A stretch of 63,553 nt of DNA, counting the filler, from Reclinomonas americana ATCC 50394 (Eukaryota): the NCBI GenBank assembly GCA_048213135.1. It is 12 parts of 3 records of this genome, joined end to end, with 100 filler letters (N's around TTAATTAATTAA, not from the genome) between each part and the next. Parts side by side here need not be neighbours in the genome. Positions count along the whole stretch, not along the records: positions 1 to 7,876 come from PS015570.1; 11 more parts are not named here. The stretch is one strand, 5' to 3'. Both the position numbers and the translations under genes were made by a program. The notes beneath the pieces are model-generated. The model made no database searches and was not told where the DNA came from. It was given only the letters and a program-made list of their open reading frames with translations. Of the stretch, positions 4,216 to 32,700 are shown in pieces. Every line of letters starts with the position of its first letter. Within the stretch, counting starts at the first letter, position 1.

Positions 4216-6346
4216 ATGACAGTACGGCTACCACTACTGCTGCTACTGCTGCTGGTGGTGATTGCAGTGATCAGTCACAGCGCAAGTGCCGACCACATTG
4301 TGCGCAACGTGCGGCTTCCGGGCCAGCCCGCCAGCTACAATGCACCCATTCACGGTGGCTACATCACCATCAATGAGAGCACACAAAAGCAGCTCTTCTT
4401 CTTGTTCATGGAGAGCAAGCGCAACCCCGAGACCGACCCGTTGCGTGCCTGCCGCAAGAGAATGCGAGTGTGTCGACGACAGACAGTGATGATTGATTTT
4501 GCAATGCAGATTGATCGTTTGGCACAATGGTGGACCCGGCTGCTCCTCGCTCATTGATATGTTGTCGTCTTGTGTGTCGCCTTTGTCTTTGTGCGTGCAT
4601 TGTCGAGCTCATGACAAGTTCTTTCCCATCCGCGCACGAGCGTTCACAGAACTCGGACCCTTCTGGCCCCACAGCAATGGACGCGATTTGCAGTGGAACA
4701 GCAATGCGTGGAACCAGGTTGCGTCGGCGATGCCTGCCTGCATGCACAGACATGTATGAGCTGACTTGTGTGTCCATGCATGCCAGATCGCCAACATTGT
4801 GTTTGTGGAGAGCCCTGCGGGTGTGGGCTTCAGCACGTCGTCGCAAACCGCGGATTATCACACGGTCTGCTTTGTTATTTCCTGTCGCCTCTTCTTGGCA
4901 TTCTCTGACACGCGCGGGTGCTCGGCTTTCTTCTTCCGCAGGAGGACGCGCGGGTGGCGGCCGACGAGCTGGTGTTTGTAAAGGGCTTCTTGCAGCAGTT
5001 CCCGCAGTTTGCGAAGAACCCGATGTATCTGGCGGGCGAGAGTTGTGTTGCGGCTTGCTCTCCTTTTGCGAGGAGAGTGATGCGACTAAAGTGGATCCAT
5101 CATGTGCAGGTTTTGCTGGTCACTTTGTGCCGAACCTGGCGGTGCAGATCCGTCGCTACAACGACGCGCACGCCACAAACCCAATCAACCTGGTCGGTCT
5201 CTTGCTCGGTGCGTGCTTGATTCACACACACGTGCAGCATGCGTACTTGAGAGGCGCTGACTGTGGTGACTCGCCCAGGCAATCCGTGGCTGGACCCGTC
5301 GATCGACAATCGCGCCGTGGTGGACTTTTGGCTCAGCCACAGTCTCATTTCGTGGAAGACGCATGCCGACATTGTCGCCACCTGCCAGCTGGGTTCGATT
5401 GGCCCGCTGGCCGCCAACTGCAACAGCGCACTCGACCAGGCGGTGCGGGAGATTGGCGACATTAGCTTCTACTCGATCTACCAGGACGTCTGCTCGCCAC
5501 AGGCACAGACGGTGGCGTCGGCTGCCTCGGTCTCCCCAGCGTCCTCGATGGTGTGTTGCGAAAAACGACCGTCTCCCTCTCTTTTTCTTTCTGTACCTCA
5601 CTCCCTGGGTCGCTGCGTAGCCGCCGCTGATGCGTTTCCTGTCACGAANNNNNNNNNNNNNNNNNNNNNNNNNNNNNNNNNNNNNNNNNNNNNNNNNNNN
5701 NNNNNNNNNNNNNNNNNNNNNNNNNNNNNNNNNNNNNNNNNNNNNNNNNNNNNNNNNNNNNNNNNNNNNNNNNNNNNNNNNNNNNNNNNNNNNNNNNNNN
5801 NNNNNNNNNNNNNNNNNNNNNNNNNNNNNNNNNNNNNNNNNNNNNNNNNNNNNNNNNNNNNNNNNNNNNNNNNNNNNNNNNNNNNNNNNNNNNNNNNNNN
5901 NNNNNNNNNNNNNNNNNNNNNNNNNNNNNNNNNNNNNNNNNNNNNNNNNNNNNNNNNNNNNNNNNNNNNNNNNNNNNNNNNNNNNNNNNNNNNNNNNNNN
6001 NNNNNNNNNNNNNNNNNNNNNNNNNNNNNNNNNNNNNNNNNNNNNNNNNNNNNNNNNNNNNNNNNNNNNNNNNNNNNNNNNNNNNNNNNNNNNNNNNNNN
6101 NNNNNNNNNNNNNNNNNNNNNNNNNNNNNNNNNNNNNNNNNNNNNNNNNNNNNNNNNNNNNNNNNNNNNNNNNNNNNNNNNNNNNNNNNNNNNNNNNNNN
6201 NNNNNNNNNNNNNNNNNNNNNNNNNNNNNNNNNNNNNNNNNNNNNNNNNNNNNNNNNNNNNNNNNNNNNNNNNNNNNNNNNNNNNNNNNNNNNNNNNNNN
6301 NNNNNNNGTGGAGAAGCATGCCACCTTCCCCACGGCGTTTGAATAA
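4216..6346 (+). CDS. Serine carboxypeptidase, peptidase family S10 (secreted), central/C-terminal part in gap
   Basis: Signal peptide [20 protein letters not shown]. Motifs [45 protein letters not shown], catalytic GESFAGHFVP and GNP. The last exon 6308-6346 is tentative. Confidence 0.93.
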
Positions 6347-6657
6347 GCGCGGAGCCATGAAGAGGAGGAGACGAAAAGTAAACGCAACAACATGATGTTA
6401 TTCATGGATCACACAAGTTCCTCTGAGTGGCGCTCACGCACAAACACAAACACATACAAAGAAGGAGAGAAGCATAGATTTTTTCGGTTTTGACAAGGAA
6501 CATGGAGAGAGCCAACGAAAACCACATTTGCTGCACACAAGCAGTACAAACAAATAGGACACAAGGGGGGGGGGATTTCTTTTTGTTGTGGTGGTGGTGG
6601 TGGTTGTGGTGGTGGTAGTCGTGGTGGTGCCAACGACACCACGCAAATTTCTTTTCG

Positions 6658-9535
<2,878 letters not shown>

Positions 9536-9918
9536 TCTGGTGCGTGTGTGAAGGATGTGTGTGGAGGAGTGAAGAAGGGAGCGAGTGGGTGTTGCGAGCG
9601 CGTACTGCGGCGACTGCAACGAATGAATGCGTCCTGCATGCGAGGGACAAACAATGCGAAGCTGTCTGTTGGCGATGAGAAATGCTCTATTCAGGGCACA
9701 CAGCCACCAGGCCAGAGAAAGCTTCTCGATCAATACTTCGACTGCGCACAAGTTTTATCCTAATACGTGACCAAATTCTTTTACCAACGTTTGCACCTCA
9801 TTACACACCCACACACCCACACACACACACGGGAAGACTAGCAAGGCGAGCTGAATACAATGAAAATAACAAGCACACCCGCGCACAAACACACAGACAC
9901 AAACACACACAAACAAGA

Positions 9919-11964
<2,046 letters not shown>

Positions 11965-12095: not shown

Positions 12096-15856
<3,761 letters not shown>

Positions 15857-16704: not shown

Positions 16705-17651
16705 ATGCTGCTGCGCGCGGTGCTCCGTGGCAACTCGCCGTTTGCTCTGCAGGTACACGCGCGTCACACACACGCACGCACGCACGCCCTGTCTCTCCAT
16801 TCACGCGCTGGCCATGGCCATGACAATCACTCTCTCTCTCACACACACACTCTTACGCACACTCAGCGACGAGGGATGAATGTGATTCGGAAAGTGCCTC
16901 CGTCGACCGACGGTGGCGAACTGAGCGATTTCCCGGGCGCGGCGGCACCCTTCACCAGCAAAATTCACTTTGTGAAGGGTCATGCGGCGATGCCCGTGTA
17001 TCGTGTCATGGGTCTCGATGGGAACCTCTTGGTGCCCTCGGACGATCCACAGGTGTGTGCTTGTATGCAATTTCATTCACAAATGCATGCCACAGGGAGA
17101 ATCATTGCATCTTTTTCTTTTTGCGTGTAGTGGACCGAGGAGCGCAGTGTGTCGCTGTACAAGGAGATGGTGCAGCTGAGTGTGCTCGACGATATCATGT
17201 ACAAGGCGCAGCGGCACGGGCAGATTTCGTTCTACATGACCAACTATGGCGAGGAGGCGACGCAGATTGGCTCGGCGTTTGCGCTGGAGCCGACCGACAT
17301 GATCTTTGGGCAGTACCGCGAGGCCGGCGTGCTCTTCCACCGTGGATTCACGCTCAACGAGGCCATGGCGCAGCTCTTCTCGAGCAAGTCGGATCTCGGC
17401 AAGGGCCGCCAGATGCCCATTCATTACGGCTCGCGCAAGCTGAACTTCCAGGCATGTTGCTTCATTGTTGTTGCTCAGTCAGCAGTGTCAGTGCTGACCT
17501 GTGTGGTGGTGGTGTGTAGACCATCTCGTCGCCACTCGGCACGCAGATCCCGCAGGCGGCTGGTTCGGCGTACGCGTTCAAGCTGGCCCGCCGTCCCAAC
17601 ATTGTCATGTGCTACTTTGGTGAGGGCGCGGCCTCCGAGGGTGACTTCCAT
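16705..17651 (+). CDS. BCKDHA: Branched-chain alpha-keto acid dehydrogenase E1 alpha, 5' half
   Basis: Mitochondrial-type presequence [18 protein letters not shown], then [49 protein letters not shown] and [13 protein letters not shown]. Confidence 0.95.
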
Positions 17652-18490
17652 NNNNNNNNNNNNNNNNNNNNNNNNNNNNNNNNNNNNNNNNNNNNNNNNN
17701 NNNNNNNNNNNNNNNNNNNNNNNNNNNNNNNNNNNNNNNNNNNNNNNNNNNNNNNNNNNNNNNNNNNNNNNNNNNNNNNNNNNNNNNNNNNNNNNNNNNN
17801 NNNNNNNNNNNNNNNNNNNNNNNNNNNNNNNNNNNNNNNNNNNNNNNNNNNNNNNNNNNNNNNNNNNNNNNNNNNNNNNNNNNNNNNNNNNNNNNNNNNN
17901 NNNNNNNNNNNNNNNNNNNNNNNNNNNNNNNNNNNNNNNNNNNNNNNNNNNNNNNNNNNNNNNNNNNNNNNNNNNNNNNNNNNNNNNNNNNNNNNNNNNN
18001 NNNNNNNNNNNNNNNNNNNNNNNNNNNNNNNNNNNNNNNNNNNNNNNNNNNNNNNNNNNNNNNNNNNNNNNNNNNNNNNNNNNNNNNNNNNNNNNNNNNN
18101 NNNNNNNNNNNNNNNNNNNNNNNNNNNNNNNNNNNNNNNNNNNNNNNNNNNNNNNNNNNNNNNNNNNNNNNNNNNNNNNNNNNNNNNNNNNNNNNNNNNN
18201 NNNNNNNNNNNNNNNNNNNNNNNNNNNNNNNNNNNNNNNNNNNNNNNNNNNNNNNNNNNNNNNNNNNNNNNNNNNNNNNNNNNNNNNNNNNNNNNNNNNN
18301 NNNNNNNNNNNNNNNNNNNNNNNNNNNNNNNNNNNNNNNNNNNNNNNNNNNNNNNNNNNNNNNNNNNNNNNNNNNNNNNNNNNNNNNNNNNNNNNNNNNN
18401 NNNNNNNNNNNNNNNNNNNNNNNNNNNNNNNNNNNNNNNNNNNNNNNNNNNNNNNNNNNNNNNNNNNNNNNNNNNNNNNNNNNNNNNNNN

Positions 18491-19193
18491 CCACCACCAC
18501 CACCACCATGAGCACACCGAAAACAGCAAAGGGTGGCGATGTGCGAATTCACCTGTCGAGGTGGGAGACGACATTCTGGTGTGCCTCGGCTTGGTACGCC
18601 GCCTCCTTCTCCTTGTTCCACCAGCCCTTCTTCTCCAGATAGAGGCGGTAGCGGATGATGGGGTTGCGCGGAGTCTCGCGCCACTGTGTCAGCTCGTCCT
18701 TGGAGCGGTAGCGCGTGGAGTCGTCGGATGTCGAGTGGTGGCCACCTGCAGTGACCGGTGAGGTGGAGGAGGAGGAGGAGGGGGAGCAATGGTGACACAG
18801 ACTGACCTCGATAGCTCATTGCTTCAATGAGAACGGGGTGGTTGTGCTTCAGTGCCAACTCGCGTGCCTGCTTGGTGACATTGTAGACGGCGAACAGATC
18901 GTTGCCGTCGACTCGAATGCTGTGAATGCCGTAGCCGAGACCACGTGCGACAATACCGTCGCCTGTGATGCGCGGCGATGTGAGTCTGCGCTGCCACCAC
19001 AACTATAAGAGGAACCAGAGCAACGCACCGCGATACTGCTCGTGCGCCGGCGTGGAAATGGCGTAGCCATTGTTGCGGCAGAAGAAGACCACCGGGCACT
19101 GTGCGCGTGGTGTTCGTGCGTGAGTGTGTGTGCTCTTTCCTCGCCCTTCGTACGCACACGTACCTCCAGTGTGGCGGAAAAGTTCAGTGCGGC
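18491..19193 (-). CDS. BCKDHA: BCKDH E1 alpha, 3' half on an inverted contig
   Basis: [36 protein letters not shown] and [16 protein letters not shown] continue directly from the + strand half. Confidence 0.93.
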
Positions 19194-19312
19194 NNNNNNN
19201 NNNNNNNNNNNNNNNNNNNNNNNNNNNNNNNNNNNNNTTAATTAATTAANNNNNNNNNNNNNNNNNNNNNNNNNNNNNNNNNNNNNNNNNNNNCTATGCT
19301 TGTTTTTCGTAC

Positions 19313-22372: not shown

Positions 22373-23562
22373 CTAGTGGCAAGCCCACTGTCATTCGCAA
22401 CCAACACCAACAAACCAACAAAGGTGTGAGTGTCAAGAACTCTCCCGCGATGGTCGCTCGTTATATACGCACCGTGAGTTTGTACTGGTTGGCGTGCGTC
22501 GGGCACTGGCACAGCTGGGCAGTTCTGCGGAGGCGGTCGTGGTGAGTGATGGCTTACAGACTCTCCACACTGCGCTGACTGTCTTGCCACAGACCCCACA
22601 TCGCCCCACATCCAGTCCGACAGTGCCTTTTCCGAGTCGGCATTGAACGCGATCTTGGTCATGCGAGCCTCGCACTCGGGACACTCGGGGTACTCAACGC
22701 CCTGAACCCACTCCGGCCACCCTCCCACGTTATCGCCAGGACTGCCGAACTGCATCATGGCATCCTCCATCTCCTGCGCACCACCAATGAATAACCGAGA
22801 AACCCTTCGCCAATGACCAGAGAAGCACACGAAACATCGTCCAGCTCGACTCCCTCCGGCAGCAACTCGGGCCGCTCATTCAGCTCCGTCGAACACGGCA
22901 GCGTATCACGCGCCTCCCACTCGCGAACATGGCGTGCGGCCAGCACCAGCGGCAACGGGGCCGCCGGTGCGACTTGCCCCACCGGCTCGTCATTCGCATT
23001 CAGCAACTCGTCGAGATTCAGCTGCTCAACGAGTACGGAAAACGCTGAGAAACGCAGAGGGAACAAGAGCGCACATGGAATTTCTCCGACACCAACCATG
23101 CGAATGAGATAGCCATCGCCATTGGCGCCATCGAAGACACCGCACTCTGTACAGAAGAACAGCTGCAGCATGCCGCGACCGTGCTGCACCTGCGCCTCAT
23201 CCGGCAGCTCTCGCATGTTGATCTGTGCACAAACACACACAATGAGCACGCACTCTCGCACTGACTCGCTCTCCCTCACACATTTGTTCGAAACTTGGAA
23301 GAAGAACGTCAGTGGCTCGTTGCATTGCGTGCACACTGGCCACTGATCGTTGGGCAGCATGAGAGGCTGACGGCCACCAAACATCGACTGGAAGCGATTG
23401 GCTGGCGATCGACATAGTGAGAGGGTGAGAGACAGCGTGTGTGTGAGAAAGACTGGTGAACACACCCGCGGGTCCATCCTCACACACAGGCACCCAGCCA
23501 GTGCGCTTCAGAGGTGCCAGACGCTGCTTGTATTCAGCGTGGTCGTCGTCGTTCTCAGCCAT
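22373..23562 (-). CDS. DUF1963/YwqG-like protein, paralog B
   Basis: Same motifs and same intron positions as paralog A, ending WACH*. Confidence 0.8.
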
Positions 23563-29734: not shown

Positions 29735-32700
29735 CAGGTGCTGCGCGTGTGAAACCACGATCGACAGCGCCTGCCGCACCAAGCAGTGCGGCAACCCTTG
29801 CTGCTCCGACTCTAGCATCACCAGCGCGCGTCGAAGGCATTCGATCTCCGGTCGCATGGCGAACGGAATGGGAGACGCCTCGGCGTGCTCGTCCACCAGT
29901 GGCACGGACGACAACACCGGCTGTTGCACGGGAACAATAGCGCCGAGTGCGGGCAGTTCTGTGGCGTCAACAGAGCGCCCGGTGGCCAACTGGTGTTGTA
30001 CTGCAGGCTCTGGTGCATGAGTACTCGATATAGTCACGAAGGCCCGACAGCAATAGACACACACCTCGCGGATCGTGCAGACCGCGACGAATCAGATGCA
30101 AGGTATCAGCGTCAACGTTGTCCACGTGGAAGAACGGCTCCTCGTCCGGGCACTCGAGCAGCTCGTCTTGATTGGCGACACCAGCCGCAAACATGTAGAC
30201 GCACACTGTGCTCATGTCGGACTGCGGACAGACACAAAGAAAGGCACGTGAAAAACTCGGGGATGTGACACAGGCAGGCGAAACACACAGAGCAGAGTGG
30301 AACCTGAGCGGGGTAGTCCACCACCAAGTCCGAGAACGTGTTACGCACGCGCTCATCCAGGTAGCACCCCATACCGGTGCCGGAAAACCCGCGACGCTCG
30401 AGTTCTGCAACAGCAGGTGAGAGGCACATGAAATCAAATTCATAATAATCCACCGCAACCACACCGATGTAGGCTACGTGCGCAGCCACTGCAGCAGTCC
30501 AGTGCACCCTTCGATACCATACGCCCGCCGACACAGGCTGCTCGGCAACCGCAACGGCGTCGCTGCGAGGAATGGGAGCCAGGAAACACAAGCAGAACGA
30601 TGAGTTGCGCAGAAAGTTCTGGCGACAACTTAAGCTGAACGCGAGTTGTGAAGCCTCCTCCTCACTCAGCTGCACACGAGAGGTGTGAGAAGAGAGGATA
30701 CATGGGTGTAATAATCGTCTGTGCGGCATCCGTCACACACCGACGACACCAGCCGCAGCTGCGGCAAACTGGGAACGATGGGATCACCCGACACCCGACG
30801 GTCGACATCCACAGACGACGGACCCGTCGGAAGCACATACACGCCGCTTTCGAGACCATCCACTCGCGTCACAACGATGCCGACGGTGAGTGGCACAGTG
30901 TGGAGTTGACTGGCCGTACCGCTCCACACCGAGTCTCGCTCATGTGCTCTGTCACGAGCCGCAATGCTTTCGAGAACAGCCACCAGCGTCTCCAGAGTCA
31001 CCGTTCCTCCCGCGGCAAACTCGGTGGCCGATCGGCGTTTTCGCACAATGTGCATGAACGAATCGCTCGCGTCAACGCTTTGCAGGCGTGCATCTGTGCG
31101 ACAACCAGACTGTAGTCAGCTGCAGCGATCTCATACCAAACGGCATGCACCATGCATGGCGCGCACCAACGAGTGGGACGTGCACGTCGGGCATCTCCGA
31201 GGGATCGGCATCTGGTCGTCTCTGCTGCGGAGCGACATCACCGGCGACGACGTGCTGCTGTGCACATGCTTGCTCCGCCATGTCGACCAGTGGCCAGTGT
31301 GTGAATCGCTCGCTCACGGGTAGTTTTCGCCCCGACAGTACTGCAACATCACCACACGCACTGTTATTGTCGGCCGTCACCACGGAACGCACTGAGCAAG
31401 AAGAATGGCCGTTGTCTGTACCTGTGCTACTGCGATATGCGGGGAGTAAAGTGTCTCGCCACTGCGCCGACATGCAGACCGGCTCCGAAACAGCCGAGTC
31501 GACTGCTGTTGTGTACACAGCCAGCACACACACAGACTTTTCGCGTTCCACATCGGCCACCGGATGGTGCTCGTCTCCAATCAGCACACTGACATCGTCG
31601 TCAGTGACATTGTTGACAACTCGCACACACCAACCAAGCGCAGCGGCTGCGTAGCCAATGGCACCAAGTACGTGCCCTATGACGAACATCGTGTATCAGT
31701 TGTTATCAGTGCGGCACAACAACGCTGCCGCCCAGCAGCGTGTACCTTCGTCCAACAGGCAGTATCGCAGGGCACGCTCGCCATACTTCCACACCTCACG
31801 CCAGTGCACGGAGGTAATTACCAGCAGAAAAGACGGCGCACTCGGTCCTCCAACACAGCACCTGCAAAGTGGAGAGCACGGTCGCACGTGAGCGTTGGCT
31901 GAACGGAGAGGGCCACATAATATCGTGTTGATGCACACGGACCGCTGAAACTCAAGGAACATGTCGTGTGGCATTGGCCGTATCACTTCCAGCGCATGCC
32001 CGACACTGTGGTAGTGGTACACAGCAGGCTGCCGCACACTCTACGCACGCATAGCAGTCACTCATCCGAGAGGCGCAGTTGACAACACCACCGCACGCCA
32101 AACGAACCTGCTGCTGCCGCTGATCGACGAGTGCGCGCACGCGCGTACCGAGTCCCGGCACAACCGGCAACACGGCGTAGCATTCGACGGGGAAGAGGCC
32201 ACCGCTGGATGGATTCACACGCTTGGTGTACGAACCAACAGAGCCACGCTTGCGTGCCGACACGGCGAGACTCGTGTAGAAAAACTCGGACAGCGAGACA
32301 AGATCCAGTGGCTGATCTGTTGGTGGGTGTGTCGTTAAGTGCGTGAGTGTGAGAGAAGCAAGTGTTTTGCCAACGCAACGAGGCAACTGGCCACTGAACA
32401 AGGTGGTGAACCGCGGCGACAAGTGCTGCTTGCGATCAAAGCGAACAAGGGGAACAACACGAGCTCCGAGATGTCGCATGAATGGCTGCGGTTGGTTGGC
32501 CCACTCTGCGCATTGGCACGCATCGCAGCAAGAGTCAGCAATCGCAAAGCTTCCTAACGGTGCCGAAGGGAGTGACCGACCTCGCCGCAGAGTACGCGCA
32601 GCACCTTCGTCCGAGTTGCGCGTCTCGCAGTGATAGAACCACAAGGCGGCTGCCGGAGTCGTTTGTGCATCCGGAAGCTCGACGCCAGGTCGCAGCGTGA

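Follow-up and report, generated by a model that had tools for sequence, protein, structure and literature searches.

How does Reclinomonas americana ATCC 50394 restore the coding sequence of a serine carboxypeptidase gene in which 81 nucleotides, starting with AT and ending with AC, separate two conserved motifs of the S10 family? The gene lies in the window, by which we mean the whole 63,553-nt stretch of DNA analyzed here. The window has a GC content of 57.5% and comes from a gapped draft assembly, with 41 runs of N and 8813 of its 63,553 bases given as N. The original prediction read positions 4557 to 4637 as an AT-AC intron without minor-spliceosome signals, that is either a rare intron of the U2 type or a degenerate or converted intron of the U12 type. 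Our analysis leads us to regard this segment as probably a U2-type (type II) AT-AC intron of the S10 gene, and as such a new case in a known rare class.

The S10 gene and its exons

The host gene (4216–5551, plus strand) encodes a serine carboxypeptidase (Pfam PF00450), of which the first two thirds are present, divided into at least seven short exons (Table 1). Along these exons the order of the PF00450 profile is kept (positions 1–42, 41–58, 84–109, 110–144, 145–189 and 177–279). The spliced model aligns to the relatives P0004 and P0132 over residues 33–295; in the alignment to P0004, five of the six junctions are free of gaps and the remaining one, at intron 4, carries a single one-residue gap. 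The catalytic serine motif GESxAG is present as GESFAG and spans the junction of exons 5 and 6. Five of the six introns seen in the gene are plain GT...CAG introns of 68–77 nt, and the sixth is the segment under study.

An N gap at 5649–6307 cuts the gene. Because the gene enters this gap, the regions of the catalytic Asp and His are not visible; as far as the gap, all exons and introns other than the candidate are intact. Searching exon 7 against longer proteins (122 aa or more) returned 397 candidates, none of them at E ≤ 0.001, and a fragmentary S10 orthologue shorter than 122 aa may exist. A 69-aa query representing the read-through product gave 21 candidates, among which were six S10 proteins, all distant. 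One metagenome locus (L001) was considered as an orthologous locus and rejected as a chance match: only intron-derived letters were matched, no S10 motif was present and its GC content was 47%.

Table 1. Features of the S10 gene and of the segment between exons 2 and 3 (positions in the window).
Feature	Positions	Strand	Description
Exon 1	4216..4439	+	ATG at 4216, start resembles a signal peptide; PF00450 profile 1–40/42; collinear with P0004 and P0132
Intron 1	4440..4509	+	70 nt, GTTGCG...CAG; junction gap-free in S10 alignments
Exon 2	4510..4556	+	47 nt; oxyanion-hole motif GGPGCSS; PF00450 profile 41/43–58; aligned to PDB structures of cathepsin A and further S10 proteins
Candidate AT-AC intron	4557..4637	+	81 nt, phase 1, ATATGTTG...CGCAC
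Rival intron	4572..4640	+	69 nt, GTGTGT...GAG; in frame, stop-free
Branch-site candidates	4608..4615	+	CTCAT at 4608–4612, its A (4611) being 26 nt from the 3' end; the overlapping TGAC has its A (4614) at 23 nt
Short pyrimidine run	4619..4627	+	TTCTTTCCC, between branch candidate and 3' end; direct reading
Exon 3	4638..4717	+	80 nt; TELGP motif; PDB: query 44/45–69 matches chain residues straight after the loop
Introns 3–6	4718–4786, 4865–4941, 5042–5109, 5209–5278	+	all GT...CAG
Remaining S10 gene, exons 4–7	4718..5551	+	include GESFAG with the catalytic Ser

Homology singles out the 81-nt segment

We scored every in-frame, stop-free junction with its first intron base within 4530–4599 and its last within 4600–4664, whatever the bases at its ends, against four S10 relatives. 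Among the 1321 junctions, removal of 4557–4637 was the unique best with a score of 564; the runner-up, which has no recognized ends, scored 544. When the unspliced translation of 4511–4717 is aligned to PDB sequences, query residue 14 corresponds to residue 65 of cathepsin A and query residue 45 to its residue 69, and the read-through product therefore carries exactly 27 extra residues. The same follows from the Pfam profile. More specifically, exon 2 ends at about profile position 58 and exon 4, with which the exon 3 match is contiguous, begins at position 84, an interval just wide enough for the 26 residues of exon 3. Profile positions are continuous only if exon 3 comes directly after exon 2. 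Once spliced at the AT-AC junction, the model is identical to P0004 at 17 of 18 residues across that junction, without a gap.

Excision joins G and GA into a Gly codon and yields a six-residue loop, L-I-G-A-F-T, between GGPGCSS and ELGP. We surveyed this loop in 156 S10 proteins (six plus 150 representatives, a sample skewed to the relatives of one plant enzyme), which gave 157 matches to a GGPGCSS-type motif. The distance from this motif to E-x-G-P is six residues in 71 of the 157 and seven in 73; the remaining 13 lack the exact downstream pattern and show the same spacing by eye. A loop of more than seven residues occurs in none of the 157 matches, and neither 10 nor 33 residues is represented. 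Gly is the third residue in 58 of the 71 six-residue loops. On an S10 N-terminal profile built from 144 segments of the surveyed proteins, the AT-AC model obtained 156.2 bits, compared to 143.9 for a GT-AG rival (4572–4640) and 137.2 for retention, where the match was split in two.

These results agree with the claim of the original prediction that removing the 81 nt restores the S10 consensus: the six-residue loop with Gly in third place is recovered by the best-scoring of all 1321 junctions. They also agree with its claim that no GT-AG pair does so. A listing limited to GT/GC-AG or AT-AC ends contains 71 in-frame, stop-free candidates. In five of them with GT-AG or GC-AG ends, both motifs survive; all five leave extra residues, the smallest excess being four residues for 4572–4640.

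Splice sites of neighboring introns

As a reference for splice sites we used 14 GT-AG introns defined by homology in three genes, a small set made up of five introns from the S10 gene, six from a PP1 gene on the minus strand and three from a PRMT1 gene. The PP1 introns were defined through the relative P0007 and those of PRMT1 through alignments to solved structures. The PP1 gene (9386–6661, minus strand) is 98% identical to P0007, an unnamed public protein, over a 53-residue exon, and a close relative of the host has therefore already been sampled; the best named relatives of this PP1 are from heteroloboseans, with 72–73% identity, but PP1 is so strongly conserved that this does not place the host.

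The donors of the 14 introns are weak, with G at +5 in 9/14 and T at +6 in 9/14 after the GT; the last upstream exon base is G in 9/14. Nearly all acceptors read CAG with a purine as the next base: position −3 is C in 12 introns, T in two and G in none, and the first downstream exon base is G in nine and A in five. Thirteen of the 14 have a YTNAY motif, in most cases CTGAC or CTCAC, at 13–33 nt upstream of the 3' end. Across 4440–11322 the donors are unusually weak and G/T-rich, with three cases of GTTGCG and four of GTGCGT in the set of 14. Intron 3 of PP1 (8964–7586, minus strand) spans 1379 nt, three N runs among them; the lengths of the remaining 13 range from 62 to 351 nt.

Two of the 14 reference introns are both in frame and stop-free, namely PP1 7250–7179 (minus strand, 72 nt) and PRMT1 10701–10351 (minus strand, 351 nt). 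Open frames that read through an intron are thus a common occurrence in this DNA and a possible source of annotation errors, and because of these two introns the in-frame, stop-free state of 4557–4637 carries little weight.

The candidate follows the local consensus except at its terminal bases

Splice-site flanks were scored with a matrix derived from the 14 local introns, omitting the end dinucleotides. The donor flank of the candidate obtained 3.30 bits (−1.2 to 5.9 in the 14 real introns) and its acceptor flank 6.27 bits (1.5 to 8.8). The last exon base is G, donor positions +5 and +6 are G and T, acceptor position −3 is C and the first downstream exon base is G. Since both scores fall within the range of real introns, each end amounts to a consensus site in which the terminal G alone is changed. 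The original prediction had likened the donor to a GTATGT donor of PP1, and GTATGT is indeed the donor of the PP1 intron 7250–7179. In the whole window, 1.9% of AT sites have equally good flanks, as do 0.6% of AC sites. Judged by these rates and by the rank of the junction as unique best of 1321, the AT-AC fit of the candidate is more than chance.

A home-made intron finder that combined flanks, branch motif and codon usage was run across the window. It detected only five of the 14 known introns and did not pick up the candidate, and AT-AC ends gave 14 matches compared to 2–16 for seven control dinucleotide pairs. Two AT...AC pairs, 23221–23281 and 30600–30677 (both on the plus strand), equal the candidate in their flanks and branch-like motif and lie in no clear coding context. 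About 0.7 such strong pairs are expected by chance, a rough figure that assumes a branch-motif factor of about 0.4.

Direct reading of the bases (A at 4557, T at 4558, A at 4636, C at 4637) bears out the coordinates, letters and 81-nt length given in the original prediction, together with the in-frame, stop-free state. CTCAT, which had been noted as a branch-like motif resembling those of neighboring major introns, is present at the branch position, where the reference introns mostly have CTGAC or CTCAC. We also trained a codon-usage score on 1387 codons from five genes of the window. In the exon frame, the segment scores −0.58 bits per codon, compared to +0.35 to +0.59 for the exons and −0.68 for the known in-frame PP1 intron of 72 nt. 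Its GC3 is 0.54, versus 0.74–0.90 in exons. Read in frame, 4557–4637 looks non-coding.

Major or minor spliceosome

Compared to the U12 donor box ATATCCTT, the donor ATATGTTG matches at five of eight positions: its first four bases, ATAT, match, and +5, +6 and +8 differ. The U12 branch box TCCTTRAY occurs three times in the window and not at all in 4557–4637; by direct reading, its nearest look-alike there, the run TTCTTTCCC, has no branch adenosines. The U12 donor and branch consensus are thus absent, as originally described, the intron having no TCCTTRAY and a start other than RTATCCTT. For a window of 63 kb, two further results are weak evidence: RTATCCTT was found 0 times where 0.5 are expected, and an Rfam search gave 0 matches, with no snRNA.

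Sheth et al., 2006 (PMC1557818) describe a U2-type (type II) AT-AC intron as one that has AT-AC ends and, position +1 aside, a 5' site conforming to the U2-type matrix. The segment 4557–4637 has these ends, a 5' site that agrees with the local (small) matrix and no U12 boxes. In Table 1 of that paper there are 24 such introns among 610,067 (human 15, mouse six, fly three, worm and Arabidopsis none), and 353 AT-AC introns of the U12 type against these 24. Because the class is very rare where it was counted, the prior for a U2-type AT-AC intron is low. The same source reports that a last-base G-to-C change compensates, with lower efficiency, for a first-base G-to-A change in pre-mRNAs of yeast and human, and names human SCN4A/SCN5A and TAF2 among the genes with known U2-type AT-AC introns.

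S10 collinearity, splice-site flanks, a branch-like motif, a composition unlike that of exons and the lack of U12 boxes together make the U2-type reading of the original prediction the likely one. The segment would then be a genuine spliceosomal intron with AT-AC ends, excised by the major (U2-type) spliceosome. Its donor would be of the local GTATGT type with the first base changed from G to A, and its acceptor of the CGCAG|G type with the last base changed from G to C, a pair of changes known for mutual rescue in U2-type splicing. From the sequence, the collinearity, the flank match and the absence of U12 boxes, we infer that removal would occur at these exact bases and by the major spliceosome.

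Alternative explanations

A GTGTGT donor at 4572, 15 nt inside the candidate, is in frame with an AG at 4640, so that a canonical option is open to the major spliceosome. If 4572–4640 were the real intron, the loop would be four residues longer and deprived of its Gly, and the AT-AC fit would be coincidental. The ends of this rival are canonical, its donor (2.27 bits) is the same as that of PP1 intron 3, its 69 nt are typical of the S10 gene (68–77 nt) and its product is stop-free and in frame. By homology, however, it ranks 83rd of the 1321 junctions and stands 12.3 bits below the AT-AC model on the S10 profile, and its loop exceeds the seven-residue maximum of the 157 S10 motif matches. The acceptor at 4640 has G at −3, A at −5 and C as first exon base, each found in 0/14 reference introns, and its flank score of −15.9 bits (1.5 to 8.8 in real introns) is inflated by n = 14 and clear in direction. 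This reading also leaves the consensus flanks of the AT and AC sites unexplained, and we consider it unlikely. The original prediction was correct in finding no GT-AG pair that restores the consensus, but underplayed this canonical in-frame rival (+4 aa), much weaker as it is. A further alternative is that the 81 nt are kept, as a 27-residue Cys-rich insert beside the oxyanion hole, or that the gene is a decaying or mis-assembled copy, for instance one in which both ends of a GT-AG intron carry sequence errors. The stretch is stop-free and in frame, the assembly is a gapped draft, and with the catalytic Asp and His regions hidden in the gap the gene may not be intact. Against this, the open state is shared by 2/14 reference introns, the 81 nt are non-coding in composition, retention scores 19 bits lower with its profile match split in two, and such an insert is found in 0/157 S10 motif matches. 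It is very unlikely that two independent errors would hit precisely the first and the last intron base and yield the sole compensating pair, and the remaining exons and introns are intact up to the gap. Overall, retention or decay strikes us as highly improbable.

Within the AT-AC reading itself, the intron might be a degenerate U12-type intron, or one caught part-way in conversion from U12 to U2, in an organism that keeps a minor spliceosome. AT-AC ends in animals and plants are mostly of the U12 type in the counts of Sheth et al., 2006 (353 vs 24; PMC1557818), and the four initial bases of the candidate match the U12 donor. Positions +5, +6 and +8, on the other hand, differ from ATATCCTT, TCCTTRAY is absent and its nearest look-alike has no branch adenosines, the flanks agree with the local U2-type consensus, and the window-wide searches for RTATCCTT and for snRNAs, weak as they are for 63 kb, found neither. 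This half of the original prediction gained no positive support, and we hold it to be very unlikely. Non-GT-AG ends would also suit a nonconventional, structure-dependent intron like those of euglenids, excised through pairing of its ends and not through recognition of end dinucleotides; the heterolobosean affinity of the top named PP1 relatives is a weak hint at discobid affinity. The fold energy of 4547–4647 is −21.9 kcal/mol compared to a shuffle mean of −22.3, and with z = 0.14, no more stable than shuffled sequence, nothing indicates structure-guided excision of that kind. All 14 other introns examined are plain GT-AG and the flanks of the candidate fit the conventional consensus, making this last alternative exceedingly unlikely.

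A broader hypothesis is that the major spliceosome of this lineage uses AT-AC ends far more often than that of animals. One of 15 homology-defined introns has such ends here, versus 24 U2-type cases among 610,067 introns in Sheth et al., 2006 (PMC1557818). Frequent use could stem from a lost minor spliceosome or from a relaxed check of the first and last base. We rate the hypothesis as distinctly unlikely; if true, it would offer a natural system for studying how first and last intron bases pair in the second splicing step.

Other features of the window

Of 615 open reading frames of at least 60 aa, the first 150 were scanned against Pfam, as were 20 selected ones. The beginning of a 2-oxoacid dehydrogenase E1 component lies at 17131–17649 on the plus strand (Pfam E1_dh profile 2–108) and a later part at 18490–19002 on the minus strand (profile 176–226), separated by an N gap at 17652–18490. 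The opposed parts possibly reflect a contig flipped in scaffolding, or two gene copies arranged tail to tail. Two nearly identical tandem open frames without a Pfam match, at 13689–14393 and 15019–15711 (both minus strand), are probably a recent duplication of a membrane-protein gene. A pattern of 44 N, 12 bases and 44 N occurs 11 times (for example 7877–7920 with 7933–7976, and 19194–19237 with 19250–19293), and several gaps adjoin CA/TG or TC microsatellites.

Implications

Gene finders limited to GT-AG and GC-AG introns would add 27 or four residues beside the oxyanion hole of this enzyme. If RNA confirms the junction, the locus would provide a natural compensating pair of first and last bases in a U2-type intron outside animals and fungi, and grounds to survey this poorly sampled protist for minor-spliceosome genes and for more AT-AC introns. 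The U2-type class of AT-AC introns has been known for decades and no new question is opened; the value of the locus lies in annotation and as a splicing curiosity.

Comparison with known systems

U12-type AT-AC introns share with the candidate the AT-AC ends and the ATAT start; they differ from it in having the donor box ATATCCTT, matched here at 5/8 positions, and TCCTTRAY near the 3' end. The nonconventional introns of euglenids, possibly a related protist group, resemble it in their non-GT-AG ends. They differ in the stabilizing pairing of their ends, whereas the candidate has conventional flanks, no such pairing and neighboring introns that are all conventional.

The closest likeness is to the U2-type AT-AC introns of human SCN4A/SCN5A and TAF2 as described by Sheth et al., 2006 (PMC1557818): in both, AT-AC ends are combined with a 5' site that fits the U2-type consensus of the species itself, with a normal branch-like motif and 3' context, and with an absence of U12 boxes. 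The candidate differs in residing in a protist S10 gene, in its short length of 81 nt and in a weak local consensus of the GTNNGT type, and its assignment to the major spliceosome is drawn from sequence. Its sites depart from the local consensus solely by the pair of changes, G to A and G to C, carried by the yeast and human double mutants described in the same paper (Sheth et al., 2006; PMC1557818). Those mutants were made in the laboratory and splice less efficiently; the pair in the S10 gene would be naturally fixed.
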